Assembly: GCA_963724515.1 (NCBI GenBank)
Contig: CAVRUU010000002.1
Coordinates: forward strand, 2,942-66,941
DNA from: Candidatus Eiseniibacteriota bacterium
GTDB lineage: Bacteria; Eisenbacteria; RBG-16-71-46; SZUA-252
Reading direction: 5' to 3'
Length of the DNA stretch: 64,000 bases
Part shown: in pieces, positions 5,855 to 32,357 of the stretch
Position numbering within the stretch: the stretch's first letter is position 1
Layout: each line of letters starts with the position of its first letter
Translations under genes and position numbers: made by a program
Notes under the pieces: model-generated
What the model saw: only the letters and a program-made list of their open reading frames with translations
Database searches by the model: none
Told to the model about the DNA's origin: nothing

Positions 5855-6634
5855 CCCGCGAACGAGCCCCAGACGCAGCGCGGTGATGGTTCCCCCGAAG
5901 GCGTAGTCGAGCCTCCCCCAAGAAACCTCCAGCCCCGCGACTCGGACCGAGAAGGCGATCCCGATCCTTCCGGGCGCCGTGCCTCGTCCGAGCCGGACCC
6001 GCGCCGCGTCCCCGAGGGGAAACTCGAGCGTCACGCGAGGGCTGTGCGTCGCGTCGGGTTCCCATCGGTCGAGGAACGCGAGCGCGGCGCCCCTCGCGCG
6101 AAACGCGGCGGCGAGCTCGAAGGCCGCCGGCACTCCGGCGCCCTCGAGCGTCCTCGTCCGGAGAATGCGATCCGCCGAGATCCAGACATCGGCGTGATCG
6201 TCCAGACTCCCGAGCGCGCGCCCGCCCAGCGCCCAACCTCCCCAGCGCTCCTCCCCGTCGGCGGAGAAGTCGAGGCGCTCAAGCTGTAGAACGAGGCGGA
6301 CGGATTTCAGGGCCCGCTCCCCGGCGGTGAGGCGCAGGGAAGCTTCCCGCGCCCCCGGCCCTGCCAGCGTGGCGTAGTTGAGCCCGATCTCACGGCCACT
6401 GGCCGAGAGCGAGAGGTCGAGCTGGGATTGAGCGAGCCCGTCGGCTCCGAACAACGAGGCGCAGCCCGCGCCCGCGCGCAGAAGCGAGACCTCTTCTCCA
6501 AATGGGAGCCAGGCTGCGTCCGTGGACACGGCTCCCAGGGCGGCGGGGCCGGCGTCTCGCAGCTCGAACGCGGCCCGCGCGGCGGCGGGCATGGCCAGAG
6601 CCCAGAGGAGCGCGATCGCGGCGGCCCTCACCAT
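5855..6634 (-). CDS. Hypothetical signal-peptide protein (beta-barrel-like); 3' end unresolved
   Basis: The ATG at 6634 overlaps the upstream stop (ATGGTGA). Signal peptide MVRAAAIALLWALAMPAAARA. This frame has no stop codon until 2777, because it runs on as the antisense shadow of 2939..5785. I therefore set the lower coordinate arbitrarily at the convergent terminator. Confidence 0.4.
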
Positions 6635-10612: not shown

Positions 10613-10737
10613 CGATCGGACCTCGTGCGAGAGAACACTCGCGAACGTGCTCGAATGGACGGGCGGGGACGTTTCACGGAGGCGGCTTCCAGGAGGACGC
10701 CGGGAGGTTACGGCGGCGGAACGAAACCGGTCAAGCC

Positions 10738-10775
10738 GGAAAATGAAACGCCCCGCCTCTTGGAACGAGGCGGGG
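10738..10775 (-). terminator. Rho-independent terminator after the STAS gene
   Basis: On the minus strand: CCCCGCCTC-gttccaa-GAGGCGGGG (a perfect 9-bp GC stem) followed by cgTTTCATTTTCC, beginning 24 nt after the stop at 10800. Confidence 0.7.
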
Positions 10776-10799
10776 CGCGATTCGGTTCCGTTTCGCTCG

Positions 10800-11474
10800 C
10801 TAGAATCTCGTCGTGCTTCCGGAGGCCGCGCTCGACTTGGAGTAGGCTTCGCGCCGCTCGCGCGTGTCCAGCTCGAGCTTCCGGAGGATCACGTAGAGCT
10901 GCACGGGATTCATCTCGCGGCCGCCCAGCTCGGGTCGGCGCAGCTCTTTCTGGATCCGCATGAGACCGTAGTCCGGGTGCTTGCGCGCGATTTCGCGAAC
11001 GAGGTCATCGTCCGACAGGATCGTCTCGCTCCGCCGCAGCCCGTCCTCACCCGAATCCGGGTTCGGCTGGTGCGCGGATGAGGAGGGTCCGGAGGACGGC
11101 GCCGGACTGGCGGGCACGATGGGTCCGAAAGAGGCGACGGCCAGGTCGGCGTCGGTATAGGACTGCAAGATGTTCTCGAACTCGAGCAGGTCGAAGACCT
11201 CACGCACGTCGGGCGCCATGCCCGCCAGCTTCAGGTCTCCACCATGCTCGCGGATTTCCCGGATCTCGCTGATGAAGATCCCCCATCCCGCGCTGGAGAT
11301 GTACTCGACCCGCGCAAGGTCCACCACCACGTGAAAACGCTTCTCACGGAGCAACGCCTGCAGGCGCCGTTCCAGATCCGGGCTGGTGGTGGTATCCACG
11401 TACCCGGAGACGCGCAGGATCGATACACCCCGGTTCTGTGCGGCCTCTTCGACGTAGACGTCGATACCCTTCAT
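10800..11474 (-). CDS. STAS-domain anti-sigma-factor antagonist (RsbV/SpoIIAA-like) with a ~100-aa C-terminal extension
   Basis: 224 aa. The STAS core (LRVSGYVDTTTSPDLERRL...VVVDLARVEYISSAGWG) includes the phosphorylatable Ser context. A Pro/Ser linker leads to a C-terminal segment (DDLVREIARKHPDYGLMRIQKELRR...VQLYVILRKLELDTRERR) that resembles IS3-type transposase HTH modules. The start overlaps the upstream stop (ATGA). Confidence 0.9.
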   Translation of the reverse strand: MKGIDVYVEEAAQNRGVSILRVSGYVDTTTSPDLERRLQALLREKRFHVVVDLARVEYISSAGWGIFISEIREIREHGGDLKLAGMAPDVREVFDLLEFENILQSYTDADLAVASFGPIVPASPAPSSGPSSSAHQPNPDSGEDGLRRSETILSDDDLVREIARKHPDYGLMRIQKELRRPELGGREMNPVQLYVILRKLELDTRERREAYSKSSAASGSTTRF

Positions 11475-13933
11475 TCTCCCCCTCCTTGTCCTTCTGGGGC
11501 ACGGTCGGCTCGGGCGGTCGAAGACAGCGCCTGCGCCAGCCTTGCCATACGTCTATCGGTCCCGTTTTGGGCGAACTCAAGCCTTTTTTCCCGCGTGTTA
11601 AGCCCGTTCTTCTTTAGAGTTAGGTAGACCGTGGCCGGGGTCAAACCAGGCCCCGCCTTGCGGGTCGCGATGAGCAGCTCCGCGACTCGCTTCGCGCCCA
11701 GAAGAGGCTCGGCTTTCACGACCGCCAGGATCGCGGCTTCCTCCTCGAGGCTCGCCCGCGCGAGCCCGGCCCGCGGCCGGAGGCTCTTCAGCCCCTCCTC
11801 GCCTCCAACCTCGGCGACGCGGCGGCGGTAGCGGTAGTAGGTCGACGGCGCGATCTGCAGCTGCTCGCATGCTTCCCCGACCGGCATTCCCTCCTGCTCG
11901 ACGAGCCGGAAGAGCTCGCGCCGCTTCGACTCGATCCTCACCTCCGGCTGCACCTTCTCCTTGATCGCCACGAGCGTGATGTCGTCGTTCTGGAGCGCGC
12001 CGGCGGTGAATTCGTGGATTTCCCGATCGAGCGCCTCGGTGAATTCCTGGGCGGTCAGGTGGCCGTACTTCTTGATCGCCGCGAGGAGCCTGCCCTCCCC
12101 GAACTGCTCCCGCGAGGGATTCATGGCCTCGGTGATGCCGTCCGTGTAGATGACGAGCATGTCCTCCTGCTTGAGCGTGAGCTTCTCGACCGAGATGGTG
12201 CGCCGGAAGAGATCGGCGTCCGGCGCGTCGATCCCGACCGGGATTCCCTTCGGCTTCAGGAAGTAGGTCGCGTCCGATTCCCCCCGATAGAGGATCATCG
12301 GATTGTGCCCCGCGCTCGCGTAGCTCACGACGCGGTTCACCGAGTCGAGCACGACGTAGAACATCGTCACGAACATCCCCTTTTTCATGTCCTCGGTGAC
12401 GAAGGTGTTCATCCGGGCCATCACGTCGGACGCGGAGCGGTTCCCGCGCGCCTCCATCCGGAGCGCGGTCCGGATCATCGTCATGACCAGGGAGCCGGGG
12501 ACGCCCTTGCCCGACACGTCCGCGACCACGACGCCGATCGTGCGCTCGTCGACCTGGACGAAGTCGTAGTAGTCCCCTCCCACTTCCTTGGCGGCACGGT
12601 AGAGCGCGCCGATCTCGTAGCCCTCCAGCTCGGGGACATTGCGCGGAAGGAGGCTCTGCTGGATCTCCTGCGCGACCTGCATCTCCTTCTGGAGCCGTTC
12701 CTGCTCGACCAGATTCCCCTGAGCCGCCCGGAACTTGGCCGTGATCTCGTTGAACGCGCGGGCGATCTCGTCGATCTCCTCGTTACCCGACCCGCCGACG
12801 TCGGCCATCATCGTTCCCTCGCCGATCGCCCGCACGCTGTCGGAGAGGACCTGGATCGGCCGCACGAAGATCCCGATGAGGATCATCGAGAGGACGCAGC
12901 CGAGGAACAGGATGAGGAGCGCGATCCCCGCCAGCTCGGCGCGCGCCGCCCCGATCCGCGCCCCGATCGCGTGCTCGCTGATCCCGATCTGCACATATCC
13001 GAGCACGGTGGCGAGGGCCTTTCCCATCGTGCCGGCCCGCACCGGCTCGACGATCGTCCCGACGCCGTTGCTCACAAGGTAGGCCGGGGGCGCCCACTGG
13101 CCGCCGAGACCCGCGCCCGATCCGGACTTGAGCCCGCTTCGCTCGGTGGTGAAGAGCTCCTCGAACCGGTTGCTGCCCCACACGCGGCCCGCGGTGTCGA
13201 GCACCCGCGCCGAGACGTAGTCCGGATTCGCCTTGAGCGCGGCGCGAATCGACTGGTTCAGGAGTGTCTGCTCGATCGACATCGGCTCGGGCCGCGAGAG
13301 AACGTCCGCCGCCGGAATCGCGAGCCCGCGCGCGACGCTCCGCGCATGCAACAGGGTCTCCGCCCGGATGCTCTGCATCTGGCGTGCGTGGATGGCCGTG
13401 AAGGCGACCGCCACGAGGAAGGTCATCGCGCCGAACGCCTGAAGGGTGTACGTGAAGCGGAGCGAGCGCGGCCGCGTGCTGCCGCCGGCCCGGCGGCGCC
13501 GCCGGCCGAGGCGCTTCGACATCGTGAGGGCGTTGCCGTCGGCGCTCCCCCGGTAGCGCACCTCGTCCATGAGCTGATTCATGAGGAAGACGCCGAGTCC
13601 GCCGCGCTTTCGGGTCTCGACGTACATCTTGAGGTCCGGGCTCTTGACGTTCCTGAGGTCGAAGCTCTCGCCCTGGTCCCGGATCTCGATCGAGAACTCG
13701 CGCTGGTTTCCGGTCACGACGACTTCGATGAAGCCGCTCCGCCCCTTGTAACCGTGCTTCACGACGTTCGTGCAGGCTTCGTCGACCGCCAGCTTCGTGT
13801 TGGCGAGAACCTTCCCCGGGATCTGGATCTTCTCGCCGACCTCCTGGATGAAGTCGCGGATCTCGGCGAGATGCCGGTCCTCGGCCGGAACGCGGAGCTG
13901 GAAGCGGCGGGTCGGTCCCGCCTTCCGGATCAT
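11471..13933 (-). CDS. Multidomain partner-switching regulator: RsbW/SpoIIAB-like kinase, 2 TM with an extracytoplasmic loop, HAMP, PP2C (SpoIIE) phosphatase and an HTH
   Basis: 820 aa.
- N-terminal HATPase_c_2-like region: LAVDEACTNVVKHGY...GGLGVFLMNQLMDEV.
- Two hydrophobic helices.
- HAMP: RPIQVLSDSVRAIGEG...IDEIARAFNEITAKF.
- PP2C: AQEIQQSLLP...GGDYYDF...DVSGKGVPGSLVM...YTDGITEA.
- C-terminal HTH: ACEQLQIAPSTYYRYRRR...GAKRVAELL...TVYLTLKKNGL. Confidence 0.9.
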   Translation of the reverse strand: MIRKAGPTRRFQLRVPAEDRHLAEIRDFIQEVGEKIQIPGKVLANTKLAVDEACTNVVKHGYKGRSGFIEVVVTGNQREFSIEIRDQGESFDLRNVKSPDLKMYVETRKRGGLGVFLMNQLMDEVRYRGSADGNALTMSKRLGRRRRRAGGSTRPRSLRFTYTLQAFGAMTFLVAVAFTAIHARQMQSIRAETLLHARSVARGLAIPAADVLSRPEPMSIEQTLLNQSIRAALKANPDYVSARVLDTAGRVWGSNRFEELFTTERSGLKSGSGAGLGGQWAPPAYLVSNGVGTIVEPVRAGTMGKALATVLGYVQIGISEHAIGARIGAARAELAGIALLILFLGCVLSMILIGIFVRPIQVLSDSVRAIGEGTMMADVGGSGNEEIDEIARAFNEITAKFRAAQGNLVEQERLQKEMQVAQEIQQSLLPRNVPELEGYEIGALYRAAKEVGGDYYDFVQVDERTIGVVVADVSGKGVPGSLVMTMIRTALRMEARGNRSASDVMARMNTFVTEDMKKGMFVTMFYVVLDSVNRVVSYASAGHNPMILYRGESDATYFLKPKGIPVGIDAPDADLFRRTISVEKLTLKQEDMLVIYTDGITEAMNPSREQFGEGRLLAAIKKYGHLTAQEFTEALDREIHEFTAGALQNDDITLVAIKEKVQPEVRIESKRRELFRLVEQEGMPVGEACEQLQIAPSTYYRYRRRVAEVGGEEGLKSLRPRAGLARASLEEEAAILAVVKAEPLLGAKRVAELLIATRKAGPGLTPATVYLTLKKNGLNTREKRLEFAQNGTDRRMARLAQALSSTARADRAPEGQGGGE

Positions 13934-13967
13934 GGGCGGACCTCGTAGGCGGTCTCGGCGTGGGCCC

Positions 13968-15911
13968 TCACCGGCGCGCCTCGGACTTCATGCGCTCACG
14001 CGCTTCGAGCACGTTCCGCCGCGCGCTCTCGTTCAGGGGATCGAGGACGAGGATCTGCTCCCAGTTCCGGAGCGCCTCGCGGTAGTCCCCCGCGCTGAAG
14101 GCTTCCATGCCCTTGATGTAGAGCTGCTTGATCCGCGCGTTCAGCTCGGGCTTGGGAGTGGAGAGCCTTCTCCCGATCCGGTCGCGCCAGTCCTTGGCTT
14201 CCGGGCTTCCGGGATCGAGCGCCAACGCGCGCTGCGCGGCGGCGCTCGCGTCGGCGTATCTACCCTCCGCGAACGCGCGCGCGACCTCGTTCAGGGCGGT
14301 GAGGGCCGCGAGCTTCTTGCCCAGGTTCTGCGCCTCGGCCGCCGTCTTCCCCAGGGTGGCCTCCATCTCGGCCCAGCGCGCCTGCGCCTTCGGGTCGTCG
14401 GGGCTGAGCCTCAGGGCGAGCGCGACCTGCCCGGCCGCGTCGATCACCCGGCTCTTCGACTGGAGCGAGTCCGCGCGGGCCAGCGCCCGGGCCGACGCTC
14501 GGTCGCGGGCCGCCGCCACGTCGCGCGCGAGCACCGCGAGCGTGTCGCGCGAGACGCCGCCTTGAGCCCCGGCGCTCTGGATCCCCCGCATGAGACCCGC
14601 GGCCTCCTCGGCGTCGCCACGGAGGAGCGCCTTCCGGGCCATGTCGGCCAGAGCGACGGCGAGCCTCTTGCCGCTCTCCACCTCGATCGCGGCCTTGGCG
14701 CTCCGCTCGATCTCGGCGCGCGCGCGCCCGGAGCGGGAGACATAGTCGCGCTGTCCGGGATCGGCGCGCTCGAGCACTTGCCACAGGATGAGCGCTGTCT
14801 CCCAGTCTTCGGATCTCTCGGCGGCCTCGGCCTTCGACCGATCGCGCGCGATGTCGCCCGCGTGCCGGGCGCGAAGCGAGTCCTCGGCGGCCCGGCGAAG
14901 CTCCTCGATCCGCTGCGCTTCGTAGCGGCTGATCGGAACGCCCCACGCGAGGCGGAACGCGAACTGCTGCGTGGCCTCGACTTTTCCACTCTGGTAGGCG
15001 TAGTCGAATCCGTAGCGGCGGAACTTGAGCCCCAGGCCGAATACCGGACCTCCGTCGGAGAATCCCGCGCGGATAGCGCCCAGCCCCGCGCGCGAGAACT
15101 CGGCCCCCACGCGCGGCTTCATGCCCTCCTTGCCGCGCGTGGCGAGGTCGAGAACGAGGCTTCCCACGGAGGACGCGTTCAGTCGCCACTCGGGGCTCCC
15201 CAGTCCGATCCGATAGGAGCGGTCGAGCGCGGGCGAGGTCCCGCCCAGATCGAGAGATCCCGCCACGACGTTCTGCGCCGACACGCCGATCCGGGCGCCG
15301 CGGAGCGCCGGCGGGCGGCAGAGCAGCCCCAGATCGAGCGCCGGGGCCGATGCGGAAAGGTCGCCGAGCGTCTGACCCAGGATCTTGAACGTGGCGCCGG
15401 CCCAGATCGGGCCGCGCACGCGGCGCGCGACGCTCGCGGCGGCCGCGGTCTCGCGGTAGTTCATCGAGCCCAGAGGACGATTCTGGGAGTCGTAACCCTC
15501 GATCCCTCCGGTTCCGATCCGCGCGAACCCGAGGCCGATCCCGCCGAGTCCCGGCACCGGATAGGAGACCGCGGCCAGGTCCCAGGTGGTCTCGAACTGG
15601 AGCATGCCGTGGTGCACGAGGAACGAGCGCTCGTCCTGGGTGGCAAGCCCCGCGGGGTTCATGTAGATCGCGAGCGGATCGAGGGCCATGCCCGTGAACC
15701 CGCTCACGGCCCCGGTGCTCGGCCAGCCGGCCGGCGTGGACATGAGGTTCGACGTGCCCGCGGTCTGCGCGGACGCGCGCGCGTGCGTGCTCAGGAACGC
15801 GGCGATCAGGAGCGAGGCTGCGAGGAGCGCCCGGACGAGGCGCTTCACCGGGACGCGCCGCAAGAAGCGGCGGCTCACGACGCACCGTCTGCGCAAACGG
15901 TTTCGCCTCAT
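13968..15911 (-). CDS. PorV/PorQ-like outer-membrane beta-barrel fused to a C-terminal coiled-coil/TPR region
   Basis: The track ORF is trimmed to the ATG at 15911, which overlaps the adhesin stop (ATGA). Signal peptide ...LLIAAFLSTHARASAQ. The barrel half has the PorV-family look (GFTGMALDPLAIYMNPAGLA, alternating strands, ...FAFRLAWG). The ~290-aa C-terminal half is Ala/Arg-rich helices with clear TPRs (FSAGDYREALRNWEQILVLDPLNESARRN). Confidence 0.8.
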   Translation of the reverse strand: MRRNRLRRRCVVSRRFLRRVPVKRLVRALLAASLLIAAFLSTHARASAQTAGTSNLMSTPAGWPSTGAVSGFTGMALDPLAIYMNPAGLATQDERSFLVHHGMLQFETTWDLAAVSYPVPGLGGIGLGFARIGTGGIEGYDSQNRPLGSMNYRETAAAASVARRVRGPIWAGATFKILGQTLGDLSASAPALDLGLLCRPPALRGARIGVSAQNVVAGSLDLGGTSPALDRSYRIGLGSPEWRLNASSVGSLVLDLATRGKEGMKPRVGAEFSRAGLGAIRAGFSDGGPVFGLGLKFRRYGFDYAYQSGKVEATQQFAFRLAWGVPISRYEAQRIEELRRAAEDSLRARHAGDIARDRSKAEAAERSEDWETALILWQVLERADPGQRDYVSRSGRARAEIERSAKAAIEVESGKRLAVALADMARKALLRGDAEEAAGLMRGIQSAGAQGGVSRDTLAVLARDVAAARDRASARALARADSLQSKSRVIDAAGQVALALRLSPDDPKAQARWAEMEATLGKTAAEAQNLGKKLAALTALNEVARAFAEGRYADASAAAQRALALDPGSPEAKDWRDRIGRRLSTPKPELNARIKQLYIKGMEAFSAGDYREALRNWEQILVLDPLNESARRNVLEARERMKSEARR

Positions 15912-18900
15912 CGCAGCACTCCCACCTTGATGCGCTCGCTCACGCCGGGTCCGTCGATTCGCGCGACGTAGACACCCGGCCGGACCAGTTCCCCGTTCCC
16001 GTTTCGCCCGTCCCAGGGAACCTCGTTCAGGCCGCTCGTCCCGCCGCGCCCTCCTGGGGCGAGCGACATCTCGCGCACGAGATCCCCGAGCAGCGTGTAG
16101 ATGGACACTTTCACGGCGGCGTCCTGACCCAGCACGTAGGAGAGCAAGCAGGCCTCGTTCCCCGCGTGGAACGGGTTCGGGTAGCCGTGGGGCCGCCCGA
16201 AAAACGTGATGTCGCGCGACGTCAGAACGCTGAAGGGAAGCCCGCCGCCGCCCACGACGGGGACGCTGCCTCCGGTGACAACATCGACGGCGAAGACGTC
16301 GGTCGCCTGCGCCAGCGCGAACGCGACGCGCTGCGCCGCCGTCCCCGCCCGGAACGTCGCCTCGACGAAGAGCGATTCCGGAGCGTTCCCCATGGCGAGC
16401 GGGGGGCTGACCGTGAGGACGACCGGATTGGGGGCGCCCGGAGCCGGCGCGCTCTGCGCGAGAAGGGTGCCCGCCGCGTCGCGTAGGGCGATCGAGGCGA
16501 TCGAAGAGGCGGGCGCCGTTCCGGCCGTGCCGTCCGAGAGGACGGTGACGGCGATCGACTGGAGAGAATCGCCGGTGGAGCTGCCGGCCACGGCCAGCGG
16601 CATCAGCTCGATCCCCCAGACCCGCACCGGCGCTCCCCCCGCCGCCACCTGCAACGGCGGGGACGTATCGATCGCGCGCACCTGGATCGCGGCGAGGGCT
16701 TGGAGCACGATGAACTCGCTGTCCGAGGAACCGACCGAGGCGCTTCCCGGAAGGCCCCACTCGGTTCCCTGGAGCGCGAGGTCCACGCGGTACGGCTGGC
16801 TCGCCATCGACGCGGGAATCGTCACGCCCGGGAAGCGGAGCGTGGCCGTGGCGCCCAGCCCCAGCGTGAAGGCGCCGCCCGTGCCGAGGCCGGTCATGAC
16901 GTCGACACCGTCGGTGAGGGTGAGCCTGGATGCGGACGGATCGAGCACGAACGGCGATCCGCCTCCGTTCCGCACGTCGAGCGTGACGTCGGTCGTCTGA
17001 CCGGGACGTGCCTGGCTCGGCGCGGTGGAGCGCGCCACGTACTGGAGCGCGGCCGGCTGCATCGCGTGGAGCGTGTCCGCGGTCAGGCTCTGCGCGCGCA
17101 CGACACCGTCCTCGAGCCCGAAGACATCGAGCGTGGCCGCGGCGTCTCCCGGCGAGGCCGGCGAGCCGAGCGCCCCGCCGGAGAAGCTCAGGACGAGCGA
17201 CTGGCCCGCGCCCACCGTGAGGGCCGCTCCCAGGGTCCGCGTGACGGCGACCGGCGGGCCGAGCTCGAGCGCCGTCGCCGGATCGAGGGCGAAGGACACA
17301 TCGCCCAGATTCTGAAGCGTTATCGAGAGGGGACGCGATTGCCCCGCGCTCACCGTTCCCGGGCTGAGCGAGCCGGCTGTCGCGGCGAGGAGCGCGGGAT
17401 CGAGGACGTCGACGCTGTCGGGCGCGAACGGGATCGTGTCGGTGAACGCCTGCCCTGCTTCGATTCCGTCGACGTACAGAAGCGCCGGGTATCGTCCCTT
17501 GGAGACGCTCCCCGGCACCGCGAGCGAATCGAACGCGAGGGTCGCCTGGTCGGACGCCGCGACCGCGGTGTTGGCCGAAAGCGCCGTGACGAGCGTGGTC
17601 CCGCCGAGATCGATGACGAGCCTCGTCGTTCCCCGCTGGAGCGTCGCGCTCGCGGCGCCCGTGTTCGCGACGCGCACCGTCGGGGCCGATGTCCTCCCGC
17701 GGAGGAATCGCTGCGGCGTGCCCGTGCCAGCGACCGCGACGATCGCCGCGCCCGAGACGACGCGGAAGCCGAGCGGCGTCACGCTGGACGCGACGACGGG
17801 GTTCCCACCGAACGTGACCGTCGCCTGAAGCGTCGCGTCGACGGTCGTCCCCGACGGGATCCCGCTCGACGGGACCTGCGCGGGGAACGTGAAGCGCGTG
17901 GTTGCCCCGGCGGGGATCGCGGTCCCGAGCGGCGGTGTCGGCGCCCCGGTGATGAAAGCGCCCGTCGAATACCCCACGCTCGCGCCCGAGAGATTCCCCG
18001 CGGTGCCGGAGATGTTCGAGACGTCGAACACGAGGGAGACCGTCTGGCCGAGCGAAACCGGATCGGGAGAGGCGCTCACGGCCGTCACGCCGATCCCGCC
18101 GACGCTCACCTGGGCTCCGGCGAGGCTCGGATAGAAATCGAACGAAGCGCCGGTCGCGTCGGTCCCGAAGGCGCGAAAGCTCGGTGCGTAGGAGCCTGGG
18201 GCGAGCGCGGCCGGAACCGTTGCCGCGGCGAACGCCAGGGTCGCGGTGGCCCCGGCTCCGATGGTGGCGGTCGAGGCGAGGGTCGCGGAGAACGCCGTCG
18301 CGCCGGCGCCGAATGAGAAGATCGAGCCCGCACCGACCTGGATCGTGCCCGTTCCCGTGTTTCGCGCCTGGAGCGAGAAGGCGGCGCTTCCACCAGGGAC
18401 GACCGCTCCCGGCGCAAGAGAACCCGCCACGTACGCGAGCGACGGAGGCGGCACGTACGTGAATGCGTGCGATCCGGCGCCACTGCCCGCGCGCGAGACG
18501 GCCAAGAGCGTGTCGAGACCCGCCGTGGAAGGCGCGATGAGAACGACCGAGGCTTTGCTGTCGGCTCCGGTCGCGAGATCGAGCCCCGGATAGGCGGCGC
18601 TCGCGTCGGAGGCGATGAGGGTCCCGGCTTGCGCGCTCACGCCGATGAGGATCCCGGCCCCGACGAGATTCCCGAACGTGTCCCTTACGGGACCGAGGGT
18701 GATCGTCGAGGCGCTTCGTCCATCCGCGGTCAGGCTGTCGCGCGTCGCGGAGGTCGCGATCGCGCCCCCGGGAGCCGCGGGGGTCACCGTCGCGTTCCCG
18801 CCCGCGCCGCTGCCTCCGCCCGCGCGGTCCGCGCCGATCGCCACCGACTCGACGAGCGTGTCGCGGCCCATCGTCACGAACGCTCCCGCCGAAAGGGCGC

Positions 18901-21900
18901 CCGAGACCGGCGTCCACGTGACGGCGCCCGAGGGGCGCATCGTCACCAATGCGGTGTCAGCCGTCACGAGGTTCCCGAACGCATCGACGGCCTGCACGCT
19001 GACGCTCTCCGGAACGCCCGCGGTCCACGCGAGCGAGGCGGCCGTCACCCGGAGCGCGGCCGTCGGCCCCGGGTACGTTGCCGCGCGGATTCCGACCGCG
19101 CTCAGCGATCCCCCGCTGACGAAGACCGAATCCGCCGCGGGCGCCGCGCTGGGGGCGCGGTAACGCACCGCGAGCCGGCCCGAGGAGTTCGTGATCCCAC
19201 TCTGCGATCCGGGCCCGCCCGACGTGCCGCCGATCGACTCGAGCGATCCCACGGCACTCGGCCCGCCCAGGTAGAACGTGATCGCGTGACCCTGGATCGG
19301 GTTCCCCTGCGGATCGAGCACCGTGACCGTCACGTTTCTCCCCTGCGTGGGCGTCAGGGAGAGCGAGTCGGGAGCGAGCGTCAGGCTCGCGGCGCCGGCC
19401 GGATTCACCGCGACCGGCCCGTAGGTGACCGTGGGGCGCGCGCCGTCGCTCACCTGGATCGTGAGGGGGCTCGCCTGGGTTGGGGTTACCGGGATCGGGG
19501 CGGTGCCTCCGCTCAACGCCACGGAGCCGGGCACGGTCGCGGCGCCGGACGTCACGGTGGGCGTGAGCAGCTCGCCGCTCTCGCCCGGAAGAGGGTTTCC
19601 GAACGAGTCGAACGCGTCGACGGTGAGCGTGACACCCGTGCCCGCCGTGAGGGGCCCCGCGGGACCTGAGATCGTGTAGTGGTCGATGGCGCCCGGCTGG
19701 TAGAGGATCGCGGGCTCGACCAAGAGCGGCACGCCGCTCGCGATCACGTGCACGACGCCGGTGTCGGCGACGGTCGCCGTCGCGCGGAAGTCGAGGCTGC
19801 CGCCGGCGTCCGTCGCGGATCCGAGCGCCGTCACGGTCGCCGAAACGCCGGCCACCGTGACCGCGATCGATGCAGCCGGAATGCCGGGCAGCGGATGATC
19901 CTGGCTGTCGCGGAGCGTGACCTGGACGATGCTGCCCGTGGCGCCGACCGGGGCCGGCGACCCCGCGCTGACACCGGAGCGCCCCGCGCTCACGCTCCCC
20001 GGGACGAGGCGGACGCTCACGGAGCCGGCCGAGGTGGTGTCGCGCACCGCCCGCGCGGTGACCACCGCCGTGGCCAGCACGTCGCCGCCGAAGAGCGTGC
20101 ACGTGATGGCTCCCCCCGACGCGGAGACCTGAACCCCGGGGGTCGATGGGTCGGCGTCGGCGGTCACGATCGAGCCGGCCGAGGCGGCGACCGTGTACTT
20201 CTCGCCGTTTTCGACCTGGTTTCCGTTCGCGTCGTGAAGGCCGCTCGCGCCGATCGTGAGCGTCGCGACGCTGTCGGCGGCGAGCGAATCGGCCGCGGCC
20301 CCGAGCGCGATCGATGCAGCCGGAATGCCGGCGAGGAGTCGGACCGCGGCCGTGGCGCTCGCCGGGCCGCCGCCTCCCACGCGCTCCGCCGTCACCGTGG
20401 CCGTTCCCGGGCCCGCCACGACGCCTGCGCGCACGCTGCCGCCGACGGCCCCCGTGGAATCCGCGAGGAGCTGCGCGCCAGGCGCGCCCGGATCCTGATC
20501 GGTGACCGGCGAGACGAGTGTCCCCGCCAGCGTGAACCGCTCGCCGGCCGCCACGGCGTTCCCGTATGCGTCGACCGCCGTCCCCGAGACGAGCACCGAA
20601 TCCACGGAGTTTGCGATCACGGTGTCGGGCGATGCGAACAGCACCATCAGGGCCGGCACGTTCGGGACCGTGTACACCGGCGCCCCTGCCGTGCCCAGGA
20701 AGGGCGACACGCCGTTCGCGTCGATCGCGCGGATGCGACCCTCCGACGTCGTGGTCCGGGTGTCGGTGAACTTGAAGCGCGCGGAATCGGCGCCCGCCGG
20801 GACCGTGATCTCGAAGATCGCGCTCGTGCCCGCGACGCTCCGGAACGTGCCGTTCGAACGGTCGGTCCACAAGGTCAGGGTCTCCGGAGCAAGGGCCGGC
20901 GCCGGGTTCCCGAAGGCGTCGAAGACCCGCACGGTGACCGTGTCCGGCACTCCCGCCGTGAGACGGAGCGTGTCGGGCGCGAGCACCATGTGATCGGGAC
21001 CGGCCGGAGAGACATCGAGGCGATGACGCCCGGACGTAAATCCCATGGCTGAGTCGCTTACGGCGAGCCAGAAGGCGCCCGCGCGGCGCGCCGTCAACGA
21101 CCCCGCGTACGTGCCGCCTGCGAGCGCGGCCAGGTCGCTGACGAGCTCCGGGTCGGCGGCCGCGGCGCCCACCGAGTCCGCGAACGCCACGAACCGCAAC
21201 GCCGCCACGGAGCCCGGCCCGTCCGTGATCGTGTTCCCGTCCGCGTCGCGCGAGCGCGCGGTGACCGCGAACGGAGCGCCCGCGGTCGCGGAGCCGGCGG
21301 CCGTCATCGCGAGCCCGGCGTACGCGCCGTGGAGGACCGTGATGACCCCCGTCGAGTCCGTCCACACGCCCGCGCTGTCCGCGTAGGCCTTGCCGGTGCC
21401 CGGAACGTCGAGCCGGAGGGCGGTGGCCGAGCCGTTCGCCGGCACGGGAGCGCCGATCCCACCCGACAGCGTCCAATCACAGCGAATCAGGAGGCCCGGG
21501 TTTCCGTAGGAGTCGTAGCCACGGAGGAAGAGCTGAGTCGTGTCCTGGTCGGTCGTGCGCGTGAGCGCGTCGACCGGCGCGCCCGAGCCGTCCACGAGAT
21601 CAACGGAGACCACGGCCCCTGCTTTGACGGCCAGCTGGACCGATGTGGAAACTTCCGCCGGCGACCCGGTGAATTGTGGGTCGCTCAGGACCTGGAACAC
21701 GACGGTGTCGGGCGCGATCGTCTGCACTCGCGCGGAAGCGGACCCGCCCCCCGCGCCGTAGACGATTCCGAACGAGTCCCCGCTCAGGAACCGCGTCGCG
21801 CTCGAGAAGTGAGGCGCCCCGCCGAGGTAGACGCGAACGGTCTGACCCGAGACCGAAATCGAATCGACCCTGACGTCGGTGGACGCGACGTACCCCGCCG

Positions 21901-22219
21901 CGGTGGAATCCGTGGTCTGCGGCGGACTCCATCCGGTCGGAATCACGGCCTCGATGAATCCGCCGGTCACGGCATCGAAGTCCTCTCCGGCGGTGTAGGT
22001 GATCGTCCACGTGCCGGGCGCGCCGGCCACCACGGTGTCGGGAGGCGTGATGAAAGCGGTCCCCGATCCCGCGCCCGCGAGAGCGGACGTTGCGAGCAGG
22101 CAGCAGGCGCACGCGACCCCGAGCGCGACGAGGATCGAGCGCCACGTCGCGCGCGCGCGCGAGCGCCCGCGCTTCGGGAACGCACGCGGCTTTCGGTTCC
22201 GGAGTGGTTGCTGCGGCAT
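15908..22219 (-). CDS. Giant surface adhesin-like protein (Big/invasin-type Ig repeats, CARDB-like repeats, FlgD-Ig/T9SS-like CTD)
   Basis: 2103 aa with a signal peptide (...LVALGVACACCLLATSALAGA).
- About 9 Ig-like modules with the recurring motif (V/A)xDA(F/Y)GNP/GNxV, e.g. VRVFDAFGNPAP, TAVDAYGNAVAAG, VDAFDSFGNPLPG, VLDPQGNPIQG, VQAVDAFGNLV.
- About 7 CARDB-like modules in the C-terminal half.
- CTD: GYPNPFHAGNEACLLSYVL...VKVSIYTLLGDLVREM...WDGRNGNGELVRPGVYVARI. Confidence 0.92.
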   Translation of the reverse strand: MPQQPLRNRKPRAFPKRGRSRARATWRSILVALGVACACCLLATSALAGAGSGTAFITPPDTVVAGAPGTWTITYTAGEDFDAVTGGFIEAVIPTGWSPPQTTDSTAAGYVASTDVRVDSISVSGQTVRVYLGGAPHFSSATRFLSGDSFGIVYGAGGGSASARVQTIAPDTVVFQVLSDPQFTGSPAEVSTSVQLAVKAGAVVSVDLVDGSGAPVDALTRTTDQDTTQLFLRGYDSYGNPGLLIRCDWTLSGGIGAPVPANGSATALRLDVPGTGKAYADSAGVWTDSTGVITVLHGAYAGLAMTAAGSATAGAPFAVTARSRDADGNTITDGPGSVAALRFVAFADSVGAAAADPELVSDLAALAGGTYAGSLTARRAGAFWLAVSDSAMGFTSGRHRLDVSPAGPDHMVLAPDTLRLTAGVPDTVTVRVFDAFGNPAPALAPETLTLWTDRSNGTFRSVAGTSAIFEITVPAGADSARFKFTDTRTTTSEGRIRAIDANGVSPFLGTAGAPVYTVPNVPALMVLFASPDTVIANSVDSVLVSGTAVDAYGNAVAAGERFTLAGTLVSPVTDQDPGAPGAQLLADSTGAVGGSVRAGVVAGPGTATVTAERVGGGGPASATAAVRLLAGIPAASIALGAAADSLAADSVATLTIGASGLHDANGNQVENGEKYTVAASAGSIVTADADPSTPGVQVSASGGAITCTLFGGDVLATAVVTARAVRDTTSAGSVSVRLVPGSVSAGRSGVSAGSPAPVGATGSIVQVTLRDSQDHPLPGIPAASIAVTVAGVSATVTALGSATDAGGSLDFRATATVADTGVVHVIASGVPLLVEPAILYQPGAIDHYTISGPAGPLTAGTGVTLTVDAFDSFGNPLPGESGELLTPTVTSGAATVPGSVALSGGTAPIPVTPTQASPLTIQVSDGARPTVTYGPVAVNPAGAASLTLAPDSLSLTPTQGRNVTVTVLDPQGNPIQGHAITFYLGGPSAVGSLESIGGTSGGPGSQSGITNSSGRLAVRYRAPSAAPAADSVFVSGGSLSAVGIRAATYPGPTAALRVTAASLAWTAGVPESVSVQAVDAFGNLVTADTALVTMRPSGAVTWTPVSGALSAGAFVTMGRDTLVESVAIGADRAGGGSGAGGNATVTPAAPGGAIATSATRDSLTADGRSASTITLGPVRDTFGNLVGAGILIGVSAQAGTLIASDASAAYPGLDLATGADSKASVVLIAPSTAGLDTLLAVSRAGSGAGSHAFTYVPPPSLAYVAGSLAPGAVVPGGSAAFSLQARNTGTGTIQVGAGSIFSFGAGATAFSATLASTATIGAGATATLAFAAATVPAALAPGSYAPSFRAFGTDATGASFDFYPSLAGAQVSVGGIGVTAVSASPDPVSLGQTVSLVFDVSNISGTAGNLSGASVGYSTGAFITGAPTPPLGTAIPAGATTRFTFPAQVPSSGIPSGTTVDATLQATVTFGGNPVVASSVTPLGFRVVSGAAIVAVAGTGTPQRFLRGRTSAPTVRVANTGAASATLQRGTTRLVIDLGGTTLVTALSANTAVAASDQATLAFDSLAVPGSVSKGRYPALLYVDGIEAGQAFTDTIPFAPDSVDVLDPALLAATAGSLSPGTVSAGQSRPLSITLQNLGDVSFALDPATALELGPPVAVTRTLGAALTVGAGQSLVLSFSGGALGSPASPGDAAATLDVFGLEDGVVRAQSLTADTLHAMQPAALQYVARSTAPSQARPGQTTDVTLDVRNGGGSPFVLDPSASRLTLTDGVDVMTGLGTGGAFTLGLGATATLRFPGVTIPASMASQPYRVDLALQGTEWGLPGSASVGSSDSEFIVLQALAAIQVRAIDTSPPLQVAAGGAPVRVWGIELMPLAVAGSSTGDSLQSIAVTVLSDGTAGTAPASSIASIALRDAAGTLLAQSAPAPGAPNPVVLTVSPPLAMGNAPESLFVEATFRAGTAAQRVAFALAQATDVFAVDVVTGGSVPVVGGGGLPFSVLTSRDITFFGRPHGYPNPFHAGNEACLLSYVLGQDAAVKVSIYTLLGDLVREMSLAPGGRGGTSGLNEVPWDGRNGNGELVRPGVYVARIDGPGVSERIKVGVLR

Positions 22220-22538
22220 GTGCCTCGGGTCGATGGGAGGTCTCGCTGCGCTCCTCCATTGAATCGCAGCGACTTAGCAGACATGCGGACCGCAAGAGGC
22301 ATGCCACGGAGCGCCGCCGGGCGGGCCTCGCGGCGCGCGAGGAAGCGGCTCGACGACACGACCTTGCAAACGCACGAAGAGCCGGGGGTTCCGGGGCGGC
22401 CGGAGGGGTGTCCGGAACCATGCAGAATGCAATTCGACGTCGAAAATGCGGTCCTGGAGCGGCTGGAATTGGGCGGGCGGCCGAGAGTTGGCCAGGGGGG
22501 GTCTGGGGGTGCTTACGTGGGGCCCAGCGTGGCTCGCG

Positions 22539-23506: not shown

Positions 23507-24727
23507 CTAGGGGTTCTGGATGGAGAGCGTCGCCTGCGCGACGCGCCGCTCCACGCCGTAGGTATCCTCGGAGAGGTTGTAGAACTGGATCGTTTCCGGG
23601 CGCGCGCGGCGGTGGAGAAGCTGGGCCTCGATTTTCACGGCTCCCTTGGCGTCGCCGATCGGAATCTCGAAGCTGGACTGCGCGCTCGCGCCGGCCTGGA
23701 TGCGACGGTCCGAGAGCACCTTGGTCGCGGTCCAGGTCTCGGCGGGGTAGGCCCCCAGGTCGTTCGCGAGGAGGATCCCGAACACGGAGTGGTTCCAGTC
23801 TTGAAATGGGTCGTTCTCCCACAGGACGTGCCCTTCCTGATCGGTCGCCCGCATGCGGATCAGGAGCAGGTGCTGGTCGTTTCCGGTGGGGATGGCATGT
23901 CCCGCGCCGACGTTCGTCACGGTCGCGACCACGTGAAGCTCGTCCTCATCGCGTTTCCCGAGCTTCAGCACGAGCGTCGCCGCGTCTTGAAGCGCGGGGT
24001 TCTTGTCGGAACCCTGGAACGAATGATCGGCCACGCGCGGGCGGGCCGGACCCAGCGAGGAGATCCGTCCCGGGCTGCCCGGCATGTGGCACGACTGGCA
24101 CGTGACTCCGGTCTTCGCGTACTTGGACCGCTTCCATTCCCCGAACGTGTCGCTGATCAGGATTCCATTCTGGTTCTCGTACTGGTGGCAGCTTCCACAG
24201 AAGTCCGACTTCGTGATGAACGCGCTGTACTTGGAGGTGTGATCCTTCACCGTCACGGCGTTGCGGATCGGGCCCAGGTAGGGACCCAGCTCGAGCGTCA
24301 CGGGCGGAACCGACCCCGGCGGACCCGGTCCGCTGATGGCGTGGCAATAGACGCACGTCACCCCTTCAACGCTCACCTCGCGGATCTTCTCGTAGTCGTT
24401 CGTGACGAACGACTCCGTCTCGTGGCACGGCCCGCACTTCAACATGGTCAGGCCGCGCGTCTCCTTCAACGACGTGAAATACATCCGTCCGAAGAGAGGG
24501 TTGTTCTTCTGGTCCGCATGGGCATGCGGCGAGCCCACCCACTGCCTGGTGATGTCCACATGGCAGGTGACGCAGGTTTGGGCCGATTGCGGGTTCAGGG
24601 TGTTGCGCAAGAGCGGTGGCGGCGTGTAGGCCGAGACCGCCAGGGCCACCAGCGCGAGAGCCGAAACGACGAAGGCAAAGCACCGGGGGGACGGAGGCAA
24701 ACGATAACGGGTCAAGGTGCCGTTCAT
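23507..24727 (-). CDS. Multihaem c-type cytochrome (five CxxCH motifs), membrane-anchored or secreted
   Basis: 406 aa with an N-terminal hydrophobic anchor. The CxxCH sites are CVTCH, CGPCH, CVYCH, CGSCH and CQSCH. The start overlaps the GT2 stop (ATGA). Confidence 0.9.
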   Translation of the reverse strand: MNGTLTRYRLPPSPRCFAFVVSALALVALAVSAYTPPPLLRNTLNPQSAQTCVTCHVDITRQWVGSPHAHADQKNNPLFGRMYFTSLKETRGLTMLKCGPCHETESFVTNDYEKIREVSVEGVTCVYCHAISGPGPPGSVPPVTLELGPYLGPIRNAVTVKDHTSKYSAFITKSDFCGSCHQYENQNGILISDTFGEWKRSKYAKTGVTCQSCHMPGSPGRISSLGPARPRVADHSFQGSDKNPALQDAATLVLKLGKRDEDELHVVATVTNVGAGHAIPTGNDQHLLLIRMRATDQEGHVLWENDPFQDWNHSVFGILLANDLGAYPAETWTATKVLSDRRIQAGASAQSSFEIPIGDAKGAVKIEAQLLHRRARPETIQFYNLSEDTYGVERRVAQATLSIQNP

Positions 24728-25464
24728 GGTACCCCGGTCCGAGAAGAGGGGTCAAGAAGGTGCGCGAAAACCGTGCTCAGGATCGTGACGCCGGCCCGGA
24801 CCGACCCCGCGACCGTGCCGGAGATCTTGGATCGGCCGACGCGGCGGCGGTAGCGCACCGGGACCTCGACGTGGCGCAGTCCGTGGCGCGCCGCCTTGAC
24901 CTGCATCTCGATGGTCCAGCCGAAATCCCGCTCCCTCATGCCGAGCGCCACGAGCGCGTCGTACCGGATCGCGCGGAAGGGCCCGAGATCCGTGTACCGG
25001 ACCCCGTAGAGCGCGGCGAGGAGCCGGGTCGCGATCCAGTTTCCAAACCGCGCGTGCGGCGTGAGGGCGCCGGGCTCCCGCTCGCCGAGCACCCGGGAGC
25101 CGATCACGAGGTCCGCCGCTCCGTCGAAGATCGGACGGAGCACCAGGACCGCCTCGGAGGGATCGTCGCTCAGGTCGGCGTCGAGGAAGAGCACGACGTC
25201 GGGAGGATCGGCGGCGAGCGCTTCGAGCGCCTTGAGGCAAGCGGCGCCGTAGCCGCGGCGCGGCTCGTGGACCACCGTGGCGCCTCGCTCGCGGGCGATG
25301 CGCGCGGTCGCGTCGGTCGAGCCGTTGTCGGCCACGATGACCCGGCGGACGGGAGGCGAAGGGAGCGCATCCAGGACGAGGCCGAGCGACTGGGCTTCGT
25401 CGAGGGCCGGGATGACGGCGTCGACGCGGAGCGGCGAGGCGCCCCGCGCTCCCGCGACCCTCAC
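24724..25464 (-). CDS. Family 2 glycosyltransferase
   Basis: The GTG start at 25464 overlaps the ppdK stop (GTGA), giving 246 aa. Motifs: DAVIPALDEAQSL, VIVADNGSTDAT, FLDADLSDDP. The upstream part of the 718-aa track ORF is a shadow of ppdK. Confidence 0.85.
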   Translation of the reverse strand: MRVAGARGASPLRVDAVIPALDEAQSLGLVLDALPSPPVRRVIVADNGSTDATARIARERGATVVHEPRRGYGAACLKALEALAADPPDVVLFLDADLSDDPSEAVLVLRPIFDGAADLVIGSRVLGEREPGALTPHARFGNWIATRLLAALYGVRYTDLGPFRAIRYDALVALGMRERDFGWTIEMQVKAARHGLRHVEVPVRYRRRVGRSKISGTVAGSVRAGVTILSTVFAHLLDPSSRTGVP

Positions 25465-32187: not shown

Positions 32188-32357
32188 CTATCAAGTAATT
32201 TGATGACGTTCACTCTTCCCATTGTGAGACCACACTTCAATTTAGCTCGGCCAGAATCACGATGACTAAGGAGGTGATCGGGCTCGGAGTATTGTGATCC
32301 TTATCCTCTTGAGGGTGTCTTCTCGCTTTTACCTGCGTTAGAGAGGAGATGAATGGA

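Follow-up and report, generated by a model that had tools for sequence, protein, structure and literature searches.

What does a partner-switching module act on when no sigma factor is encoded beside it? Such modules are among the most widespread of bacterial signaling devices, and little is understood about those whose output is something other than a sigma factor: SypA still has no known target, and CapS entered the literature only in 2026. The question is raised by two overlapping genes in a 64,000-nucleotide stretch of DNA from a Candidatus Eiseniibacteriota bacterium (assembly GCA_963724515.1, contig CAVRUU010000002.1), the whole of which is called the window here; coordinates are positions in this 64-kb window, and all genes of the operon lie on its (-) strand. 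One gene encodes a membrane protein that fuses a serine kinase to a phosphatase, and the other encodes a STAS-domain protein. An original prediction, made from the DNA letters alone, had proposed that both partners end in helix-turn-helix (HTH) modules of the transposase type through which they control adjacent surface-protein genes. Our analysis indicates that the pair is probably a self-contained, membrane-anchored, sigma-factor-free switch that governs its own adhesin operon.

A scan of species-representative genomes identified 300 loci that encode relatives, and 80 of these were kept for study. They came from Eisenbacteria (66 to 90% identity), from Krumholzibacteriota, Latescibacterota, UBP1, and unclassified metagenome-assembled genomes (MAGs) (46 to 50%), and from FCPU426 (40 to 41%); a KSB1 member was found among the representatives from an exhaustive profile search. 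Neighborhoods were read from the orthologues and from the genome scan, the window's own protein being without an exact database record. The complete architecture is retained in more than 100 full-length orthologues of the fusion, which are 67 to 91% identical. Those with a name come mostly from Candidatus Eisenbacteria MAGs, and the annotation of these proteins goes no further than "SpoIIE family protein phosphatase" or "HAMP domain-containing protein." Given these orthologues and the relatives encoded at 300 loci, the features described below are not the product of chance.

The fusion protein and its STAS partner

Both predicted open reading frames (ORFs) were recovered, that of the 820-aa fusion at 11471..13933 (-) and that of the 224-aa STAS protein at 10800..11474 (-), with a 4-nt overlap between them. 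Searches of Pfam and NCBIfam, together with hydropathy analysis, also bore out the domain order first proposed for the fusion, giving in sequence an RsbW-like kinase, a transmembrane segment (TM1), a Cache-like loop, a second transmembrane segment (TM2), HAMP, PP2C, HTH1, and HTH2. The kinase domain (HATPase_c_2, residues 15-140, 13514..13891 (-), Pfam E 3.6e-31) has intact N- and G-boxes and aligned end to end with the RsbW structure 6M36 (E 4.3e-15), including the EACTNxxxH, DxGxxFD, and GGLGxxLM motifs. The PP2C/SpoIIE phosphatase domain (residues 463-658, 11960..12547 (-), Pfam E 1.1e-49) matched the structures of RssB (3ES2), Rv1364c (3KE6, E 7e-14), and SiaA (6K4E). In 14 diverse orthologues, both the N-box and G-box residues of the kinase and the Asp-containing motifs of the phosphatase were invariant.

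Between these two enzymes lies a predicted membrane sensor. Hydropathy analysis placed hydrophobic segments at residues 163-182 (TM1, 13388..13447 (-)) and about 333-356 (TM2, 12866..12937 (-)). The loop that they flank (residues 183-332, 12938..13387 (-)) is assigned to the outside by hydropathy and the positive-inside rule and measures about 150 aa, somewhat less than the approximately 170 aa first estimated. Ten of the 21 residues preceding TM1 are Arg or Lys, and the N terminus of the fusion is therefore taken to be cytoplasmic and the loop external. The kinase, HAMP, PP2C, and HTH parts are accordingly all predicted to be cytoplasmic. The match of this loop to sCache_3_2 was weak (Pfam E 0.029), and the same model passed its cutoff in a 49%-identical relative, L036 (29.0 versus 28.4 bits). 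Just upstream of the phosphatase, HAMP was recognized at residues 352-396 (12746..12880 (-); 25.8 bits versus a cutoff of 25). Pfam gave no Response_reg match in the fusion, the center of which consists of transmembrane segment, Cache-like loop, transmembrane segment, and HAMP. As judged from these domains, one membrane protein combines a kinase with a phosphatase, both predicted to act on the same STAS serine, on either side of an extracytoplasmic sensor and a HAMP domain.

The STAS domain itself occupies residues 1-118 of the cotranslated partner (11121..11474 (-); Pfam STAS at 11-107, E 5.2e-19), and the protein matched the SpoIIAA chain 1TH8_B with an E value of 2.3e-10. In that alignment Ser61, which lies in the motif YISSAGWG and is encoded at 11292..11294 (-), fell on the first Ser of the SpoIIAA DSSG motif, as expected for the phosphorylatable serine proposed at the outset. 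Ser61 was invariant across the STAS orthologues. The SpoIIAA residue with which it aligns is labeled Ser58 for PDB 1TID in the CapS paper (PMC13373217).

The C-terminal HTH modules

The region that follows the phosphatase carries two modules. HTH1 (residues 668-722, 11768..11932 (-)) is of the HTH_23/HTH_28 type and exceeded the Pfam cutoffs for both families (HTH_23 at residues 668-716, 33.3 versus 24.6 bits; HTH_28, 28.6 versus 25 bits). Helices were predicted in it at residues 685-692 and 696-709, it contains an invariant helix, STYYRYRRRV, and it is conserved from Eisenbacteria through FCPU426. HTH2 (residues 729-792, 11558..11749 (-)) is of the HTH_32 or IS481 N-terminus type, as assigned by Pfam, NCBIfam, and hhalign; the HTH_32 match, at residues 698-771, was below its cutoff. 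In NCBIfam, the N-terminal 114 positions of the model for IS481 transposases were matched by residues 670-786 (E 5.9e-15); IS630 and IS3 gave weaker matches. An AlphaFold2 (AF2) model of the fusion C terminus, with a mean predicted local distance difference test (pLDDT) score of 75.9, consisted of two helical HTH units and two C-terminal helices. The HTH fold is thus well supported for this region by profile matches and modeling.

The tail of the STAS protein was harder to assign. Its helical, HTH-like region (residues 148-213, 10836..11033 (-)) is specific to Eisenbacteria, and the HTH_21 module that had been proposed there was matched below threshold by Pfam (residues 157-204, E 0.0018, 18.9 versus 28.1 bits). 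Three other results favored the assignment. By hhalign the tail matched HTH2 of the fusion (residues about 729-792) with 96% probability and an E value of 2.5e-9. In a set of 120 STAS orthologues of at least 78% identity, residues 148-212 were near-invariant and the linker at 123-147 was variable. An AF2 model of an 85-aa construct (mean pLDDT 73.2, with block means of 78 to 90 over the core) formed a small helical unit, with helices at construct positions 16-26, 32-39, 51-60, and 66-77. These predictions leave the HTH fold of the tail reasonably supported, and the profile-profile homology means that the two partners carry paralogous modules, the fusion having one extra, first HTH. In one chromosome (OY969801.1; loci L002/L032, ~12403-13179), the STAS domain and the tail lie in different frames, as a 235-aa STAS ORF and a separate tail ORF; this split is probably an assembly indel, because L001, which encodes an identical fusion (P0064), has an intact 220-aa gene.

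Structural comparison with Foldseek against the PDB, which had been suggested along with the original prediction, returned HTH DNA-binding domains for both models, none of them at a significant E value. For the fusion C terminus the nearest neighbors were the Pax5/6 paired domain, TnsB, SETMAR, Tc3, and Mos1 (E 0.096 or worse), and for the STAS tail they were PadR, Pax, FapR, and other small HTH or winged HTH (wHTH) domains (all E >1). With no hit at an E value of 0.001, these neighbors are consistent with an HTH fold and fall short of proof. DNA binding by the modules is no more than plausible.

A resemblance to transposases raises the question of whether the modules are debris, left by insertion of an IS481 or IS3 element or by an assembly chimera and without function. 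The labels lend this some color, since the Joint Genome Institute (JGI) annotates C-terminal fragments of orthologues as "transposase" and NCBIfam matches the N termini of IS481, IS630, and IS3. However, the modules are in frame, both C termini are under strong purifying selection, and they hold the same position in orthologues from several phyla. Pfam detected no rve or DDE domain in the fusion, in the STAS protein, or in nine representative relatives, and no convincing terminal inverted repeats were found, the best pairs being 70 to 77% complementary, GC rich, and probably due to chance. A word-based search with the fusion C terminus alone returned only fragments of orthologues, several of them with the JGI label, and no real transposases; the modules are therefore only remote kin of insertion sequence (IS) elements, a kinship that shows up in profile comparisons alone. 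On the strength of the conservation, the fixed position across phyla, and the lack of a DDE domain or convincing inverted repeats, we rejected the transposase remnant, to which we give practically no credence. What the modules share with the N termini of IS481, IS630, and IS3 and with the Pax paired domain is a bipartite HTH-HTH arrangement; unlike the IS elements, they are present in single copy at a fixed syntenic position and are attached to signaling or envelope proteins without DDE or rve.

The same HTH_23/28/32 modules, again without a transposase catalytic domain, were seen in seven other listed proteins and at the locus L083 (9418-12840). Three glycosyltransferase family 2 (GT2) fusions (P0333, P0338, and P0325) have two tandem HTH units at the N terminus; one of these is in an exopolysaccharide cluster. 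Four HTH_32/HTH_21 units precede the GspC-like protein P0327, which has type II secretion system (T2SS) C and PDZ domains, and in P0294, P0379, and P0307 HTH modules are joined to TPR repeats. These modules may be a domesticated HTH family carried on envelope-biogenesis proteins.

The adhesin operon and its distribution

The switch genes are preceded on the same strand by two genes for predicted surface components. The first gene of the operon (15908..22219 (-)) encodes a giant surface protein of 2103 aa with immunoglobulin-like repeats (Big_1) and a C-terminal FlgD_ig/type IX secretion system (T9SS)-type sorting domain; its C terminus gave weak matches to Por_Secre_tail, the T9SS type A sorting domain, and to the PorU C terminus. 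The second (13968..15911 (-)) encodes a 647-aa outer membrane barrel with TPR repeats. Pfam gave no match for the barrel domain, and NCBIfam then placed it in the PorV/PorQ family (PorV_fam, E 3.6e-15, below the curated full-length cutoff). Its ATG overlaps the adhesin stop codon (ATGA). Long spurious ORFs overlap real genes in this DNA (for example, 13968-18917 (-), 12014-13948 (+), and 8990-10963 (+)), as is typical at ~70% G+C, and of the 1649-aa ORF at 13968..18917 only the part from position 15911, its true ATG, onward is real. Together, the adhesin and the PorV-like protein suggest a dedicated T9SS-type pair of cargo and shuttle in a phylum outside the Bacteroidota.

This arrangement is widely kept. 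The adhesin gene is syntenic in nearly all loci, and in every locus with enough flanking sequence the order on one strand is adhesin, barrel-TPR protein (610 to 650 aa), fusion, STAS, a membrane protein of ~720 aa with a weak vWA match, and a protein with LTD and FlgD_ig domains. That order is invariant in Eisenbacteria, Krumholzibacteriota, Latescibacterota, UBP1, and FCPU426. Conservation of the two-gene architecture next to giant adhesins, about which the original prediction had asked, therefore extends across several candidate phyla. The control of adjacent surface-protein genes that it proposed fared in two parts: the conserved synteny and the overlapping start and stop codons are strong evidence, at the level of sequence, for a functional link between the switch and these genes, whereas control as such is what we infer.

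Upstream of the operon, a sigma54-type -24/-12 promoter element, TGGCATGCCTCTTGC, was found at 22292..22306 (-), ~73 nt before the adhesin ATG at 22219. It has the GG of the -24 and the GC of the -12 positions and is the sole exact match to TGGCAY-N5-TTGC in the window. Each of the 16 Eisenbacteria loci that extend over the intergenic region has the element in the corresponding place, amid sequence that otherwise aligns poorly, and in 15 of the 16 it is the only plus-strand match in ~20 kb. Outside Eisenbacteria, the strict pattern had no match at a comparable position, most of the 10-kb flanks there stopping short of the adhesin start. A palindrome-like site, TTGCATTCTGCA (TTGCR-N3-TGCA), lies farther upstream at 22421..22432 (-), where it is the single match in the window against 0.09 expected, and related loci conserve sites of this type ~115 to 130 nt upstream of their -24/-12 element; it is a possible operator or enhancer site. 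Closer relatives also share a TTTGCAA block, GCGTTTGCAAGG, ~60 to 70 nt upstream of the -24/-12 element (about 22363-22374 (-)), which could likewise serve as an operator or enhancer site. The upstream palindrome recurs as TTGCATTTTGCA in non-Eisenbacteria loci but was rejected there as operator evidence: in L036, the locus checked, it is contained in the conserved TPR gene that precedes the stand-alone STAS genes, and its conservation is therefore probably that of coding sequence.

At the other end of the operon, a GC-rich hairpin with a T-rich tail (10748..10778 (-)) lies ~20 nt after the STAS stop codon; of the 12 bp in its stem, 10 are GC pairs. In most Eisenbacteria loci the STAS gene is likewise followed by a hairpin, with an energy of -20 to -39 kcal/mol and a stem whose sequence differs from locus to locus, and the one in the window is likely a terminator (or attenuator) before the vWA-like gene. 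Given the promoter, the overlaps, and the hairpin, the likely transcription unit consists of the sigma54 promoter, the adhesin, PorV/TPR, fusion, and STAS-HTH genes, and the terminator.

The lack of a sigma factor nearby was then confirmed and given bounds. Sigma70-family genes and enhancer-binding proteins were surveyed in the 64-kb window and in ~10 kb per side of 82 related loci. The probes of the sigma survey were RpoE, SigF, SigB, and SigW, searched with phmmer, and the positive control was an extracytoplasmic function (ECF) sigma factor detected in the outlier locus L076; the NtrC probe was validated against Pfam (Sigma54_activat, 2e-66). No sigma70-family gene was detected in the window or in 81 of the 82 loci, the single exception being that one ECF gene in L076, so that within the DNA inspected the sigma-factor target of classical partner switching is missing. 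Neither an enhancer-binding protein nor rpoN was detected in the window or in the flanks of the 82 loci, the RpoN probe being without a positive control. The operon would nonetheless not be sigma independent in the wider sense, as it has a conserved sigma54-type promoter. A sigma54 promoter requires an AAA+ enhancer-binding protein.

These surveys bear on the conventional alternative, in which the kinase would serve as anti-sigma factor to a member of the sigma70 family whose gene lies in another part of the genome, the HTH modules having an accessory role. The trio of kinase, STAS protein, and PP2C phosphatase does define the RsbW/RsbV/RsbU paradigm, and the DNA inspected amounted to 64 kb of this genome and ~10 kb per side in the others. 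However, a cognate sigma factor is normally encoded in the same operon, and none of the sigma70 family was seen in the window or in 81 of 82 loci representing at least five candidate phyla. The operon promoter, moreover, is of the sigma54 type, and we know of no case in which sigma54 is the target of an RsbW-type anti-sigma factor. In SypE, the fused analogue considered below, the output is a STAS protein and not a sigma factor. We attach very little probability to a remote sigma factor target.

Comparison across phyla divided the loci into three types. In type A (Eisenbacteria), the fusion is paired with a STAS protein that has the HTH tail. In type B (33 loci), the fusion is ~1400 aa long, with three STAS domains after the HTH pair, and two stand-alone STAS proteins lack the tail; Pfam confirmed this layout for L036 (9965-14227 (+)), where the kinase is still N-terminal. 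In type C (7 loci), a fusion of ~830 aa is paired with a plain STAS protein. The claim that both partners end in HTH modules therefore holds for Eisenbacteria and fails in the other phyla, where the STAS partner is without a tail. Searches with hidden Markov models (HMMs) built from the modules showed that HTH1 and HTH2 follow the phosphatase in essentially all relatives; some relatives end in TPR repeats instead. Since the pair follows PP2C in essentially all of them and the tail is confined to Eisenbacteria, the HTH pair is by this distribution ancestral across Eisenbacteria, Krumholzibacteriota, Latescibacterota, KSB1, and FCPU426, and the tail an addition made in Eisenbacteria. In type B loci of the Krumholzibacteriota, Latescibacterota, and UBP1 type (for example, L035, L036, L037, L043, and L052), the gene order is fusion, a ParA-like fragment ORF, a TPR gene, and two STAS genes.

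The constant joining of kinase and HTH pair in one polypeptide across phyla, even where the STAS protein is plain, invites a second alternative, a partner switch in cis. The RsbW-like domain would retain the anti-sigma logic of its ancestors but sequester, in place of a sigma factor, the HTH pair of its own chain or of its dimer mate, unphosphorylated STAS would free the pair to bind DNA, and the phosphatase and sensor would reset STAS. HTH1 has a weak match to Sigma70_r4_2 (E 3.4e-4), no sigma factor is near, and CapK likewise joins an HTH to its kinase, the role of the CapK HTH being unknown. Against these points, the Sigma70_r4_2 similarity is below its cutoff and generic to HTH domains, two membrane passes and ~500 residues separate the kinase from the HTH pair, and the scheme is purely inferential. 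We consider it quite improbable. A broader version, which we also judge unlikely, would have the transposase-derived modules form a domesticated family of cytoplasmic regulators on envelope-biogenesis membrane proteins of candidate phyla related to the Fibrobacterota-Chlorobiota-Bacteroidota (FCB) group; in the fusion they would take the place of the sigma factor, and the resulting in-cis, membrane-tethered partner switch would pass a signal from outside the cytoplasm straight to the DNA of an adhesin operon that depends on sigma54.

Several neighboring features were noted in passing. A second sigma54-like site, TGGCTCGTGGGTTGC (27083-27097 (-)), has one mismatch and is at chance level, 3.2 such sites being expected; it lies ~200 nt upstream of the GT2 gene at 24724..26880, which heads an array of GT2, multiheme cytochrome, and CDP-alcohol phosphatidyltransferase genes. 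On the opposite strand, between the LTD gene and a gene for a 511-aa protein, a 948-aa protein with a FlgD_ig/CHU_C (T9SS-type) C terminus is encoded at 2939-5785 (+); in the more distant Eisenbacteria loci L001 and L084, short genes on the same strand stand in its place, and the G+C content of the stretch is lower (0.64 to 0.67). The neighborhood also encodes other predicted surface or T9SS-type cargo proteins (PD40 with FlgD_ig/Por_Secre_tail, 32349-34325 (+); LTD with FlgD_ig, 6628-8370 (-)) and a multiheme c-type cytochrome (23507-24727 (-)).

Proposed output of the switch and its known relatives

Two characterized systems come closest to the locus, and both bear on how its output might be read. 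In Vibrio fischeri, SypE has an N-terminal serine kinase, a receiver (REC) domain at its center, and a C-terminal PP2C domain and acts on the STAS protein SypA (PMC10120452). SypA is the downstream effector within the syp biofilm locus, which is activated by the sigma54-dependent regulator SypG (PMC10120452, PMC4517449). A kinase-input-phosphatase order in one chain thus has a precedent in SypE. Like SypE, the fusion places an N-terminal RsbW-like kinase, a central input, and a C-terminal PP2C domain in one polypeptide, with activities that, from sequence, would be antagonistic on one STAS serine. As in SypE/SypA, the STAS protein would be the downstream effector, no sigma factor would be involved, and the genes lie inside a cell surface locus dependent on sigma54, through SypG in syp and, by the evidence of the -24/-12 element, presumably here. 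The two nonetheless differ. The input of SypE is a cytoplasmic REC domain, whereas that of the fusion is a two-pass, Cache-like sensor with HAMP. The fusion has two C-terminal HTHs and the Eisenbacteria STAS protein has an HTH-like tail, features that are absent from both SypE and SypA (105 aa). The locus, finally, encodes a T9SS-type adhesin and a PorV-like protein and not a polysaccharide pathway. Beyond the common domains, no orthology with SypE/SypA was detected.

The second system is CapK/CapS. The repressor CapS, a STAS-wHTH protein, occupies palindromes in promoters as a dimer, and it leaves the DNA once its STAS serine has been phosphorylated by CapK, a SpoIIAB-like kinase (Chambers et al., EMBO J 2026; PMC13373217). 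CapK carries an HTH as well, of unknown role (PMC13373217). A sigma-less kinase/STAS pair with direct DNA binding is therefore no longer undescribed, and the original claim of a novel output was weakened by this work. The STAS partner in Eisenbacteria resembles CapS in its N-terminal STAS domain with a conserved phospho-serine and, as far as layout goes, in a putative C-terminal HTH (HTH_21, subthreshold), the fusion resembles CapK in having a SpoIIAB/RsbW-like kinase and an HTH in the same chain, and both systems lack a sigma factor and regulate, or here are proposed to regulate, an adjacent operon. CapK, however, is a cytoplasmic HTH-STAS-GHKL protein activated by single-stranded DNA, without a phosphatase or membrane sensor, whereas the kinase of the fusion is N-terminal and followed by TM-HAMP-PP2C-HTH-HTH. 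The wHTH of CapS is MarR-like, whereas the tail here is of the HTH_21/HTH_32 transposase type and a paralogue of HTH2, and CapK/CapS are found in anti-phage or stress operons rather than beside adhesin genes. A profile of 21 STAS-HTH orthologues, searched against PDB sequences up to an E value of 1, returned SpoIIAA, RsbV, and RsfB and no entry named CapS, the presence of CapS in that set being unconfirmed. The locus would work like SypE/SypA and CapK/CapS yet belongs to neither family, as it has no REC domain, does not have the CapK layout, and uses another type of HTH.

More distant relatives share the parts and not the plan. The kinase, STAS, and PP2C domains are homologous to those of RsbW/RsbV/RsbU and SpoIIAB/SpoIIAA/SpoIIE, with catalytic and acceptor motifs kept; unlike in those modules, the kinase and phosphatase are fused in a membrane protein, extra HTHs are present, and there is no sigma70-family target nearby. 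Rv1364c of Mycobacterium tuberculosis and HsbR/HsbA and SiaABCD of Pseudomonas are likewise unusual wirings of PP2C, RsbW-like, and STAS domains with nonclassical outputs, and they too differ in domain order and are without transposase-type HTHs or this gene context. The order in Rv1364c is sensor-PP2C-kinase-STAS, and that in HsbR is REC-PP2C-kinase. A search of the literature found no description of the present architecture, and DNA-binding or HTH fusions go unmentioned in a review devoted to STAS-only proteins. The system is uncharacterized, and given SypE/SypA and CapK/CapS its interpretation is only partly new.

From these comparisons we favor phosphorylation-controlled DNA binding by the STAS-HTH protein of Eisenbacteria at the regulatory region of its own operon, with the HTH pair of the fusion either co-binding the DNA or docking the tail, a proposal whose chances we rate as close to even but short of it. 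If the analogy with SypE/SypA holds, the loop and HAMP would read a signal from the envelope or the outside and shift the balance of kinase and phosphatase, that balance would set the phosphorylation state of Ser61, and the output would be the STAS protein and not a sigma factor. By analogy with CapS, the unphosphorylated STAS-HTH protein of Eisenbacteria would bind DNA through its C-terminal module, and phosphorylation of Ser61 would alter its oligomeric state or its affinity for DNA. The likely sites would be the palindrome-like elements upstream of the sigma54-type promoter, and the result would be that all four genes, adhesin, PorV-like, fusion, and STAS, come under transcriptional feedback control. 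The least certain step concerns the HTH pair of the fusion, a bipartite module of the paired or transposase type, which would probably either co-bind the DNA region at the membrane or dock the STAS tail.

Several results weigh against this proposal. Because the tail is missing in other phyla (33 plus 7 loci), a STAS-HTH repressor cannot be the ancestral output. Searches of PDB sequences with both C-terminal profiles gave nothing significant, the best E values being 0.078 (TetR-like) and 0.087 (PadR), and the net charge of the HTH modules is just +2 each. The conserved palindromes are placed where an enhancer-binding protein would bind and may thus belong to an unlinked activator. The occurrence of HTH modules on membrane glycosyltransferases and a GspC-like protein, finally, fits a role other than that of transcription factor at least equally well.

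The main rival is a nontranscriptional output like that of SypA, in which the same kinase-phosphatase switch would set the phosphorylation of the STAS protein, the STAS protein would contact the envelope machinery (such as the PorV-like/TPR, vWA, or T9SS-related proteins), and the HTH modules would serve as docking or dimerization units rather than bind specific DNA sequences, the STAS tail pairing with HTH2 at the membrane. The paralogy of tail and HTH2 suits such homotypic pairing, the net charge of the modules is small, and the integral membrane GT2 synthases and the T2SS-C/PDZ protein carry the same modules with no transposase domain. In 40 of the surveyed loci the STAS protein is tail-less or STAS domains follow the HTH pair directly in the same chain; what stays constant is therefore a STAS domain close to the fusion and not a free STAS-HTH protein. 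SypA acts at a level below transcription, in a manner that is unknown (PMC4517449). On the other side, HTH1 exceeds the Pfam cutoffs for DNA-binding HTH families, STYYRYRRR, its putative recognition helix, is basic and shows essentially no variation from phylum to phylum, the nearest structural neighbors are all DNA-binding domains, and CapS is a precedent for a STAS-HTH protein as a true repressor. We regard a SypA-like output as less likely than not, although it comes second only to the favored proposal.

The locus brings together in one conserved system the ideas behind both precedents, with a bifunctional kinase/phosphatase under a membrane sensor and with HTH modules in each of the two proteins. 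The three variants, with a STAS-HTH tail, three fused STAS domains, or a plain STAS protein, constitute a natural experiment on the coupling between STAS phosphorylation and the HTH. The presence of the modules on glycosyltransferases and a GspC-like protein is a hint that transposase DNA-binding domains may be put to wider use, in ways not yet described. For the uncultured Eisenbacteria, Krumholzibacteriota, Latescibacterota, KSB1, and FCPU426, the locus offers a first regulatory handle, and in these common soil and sediment bacteria the switch probably governs a major cell surface structure.

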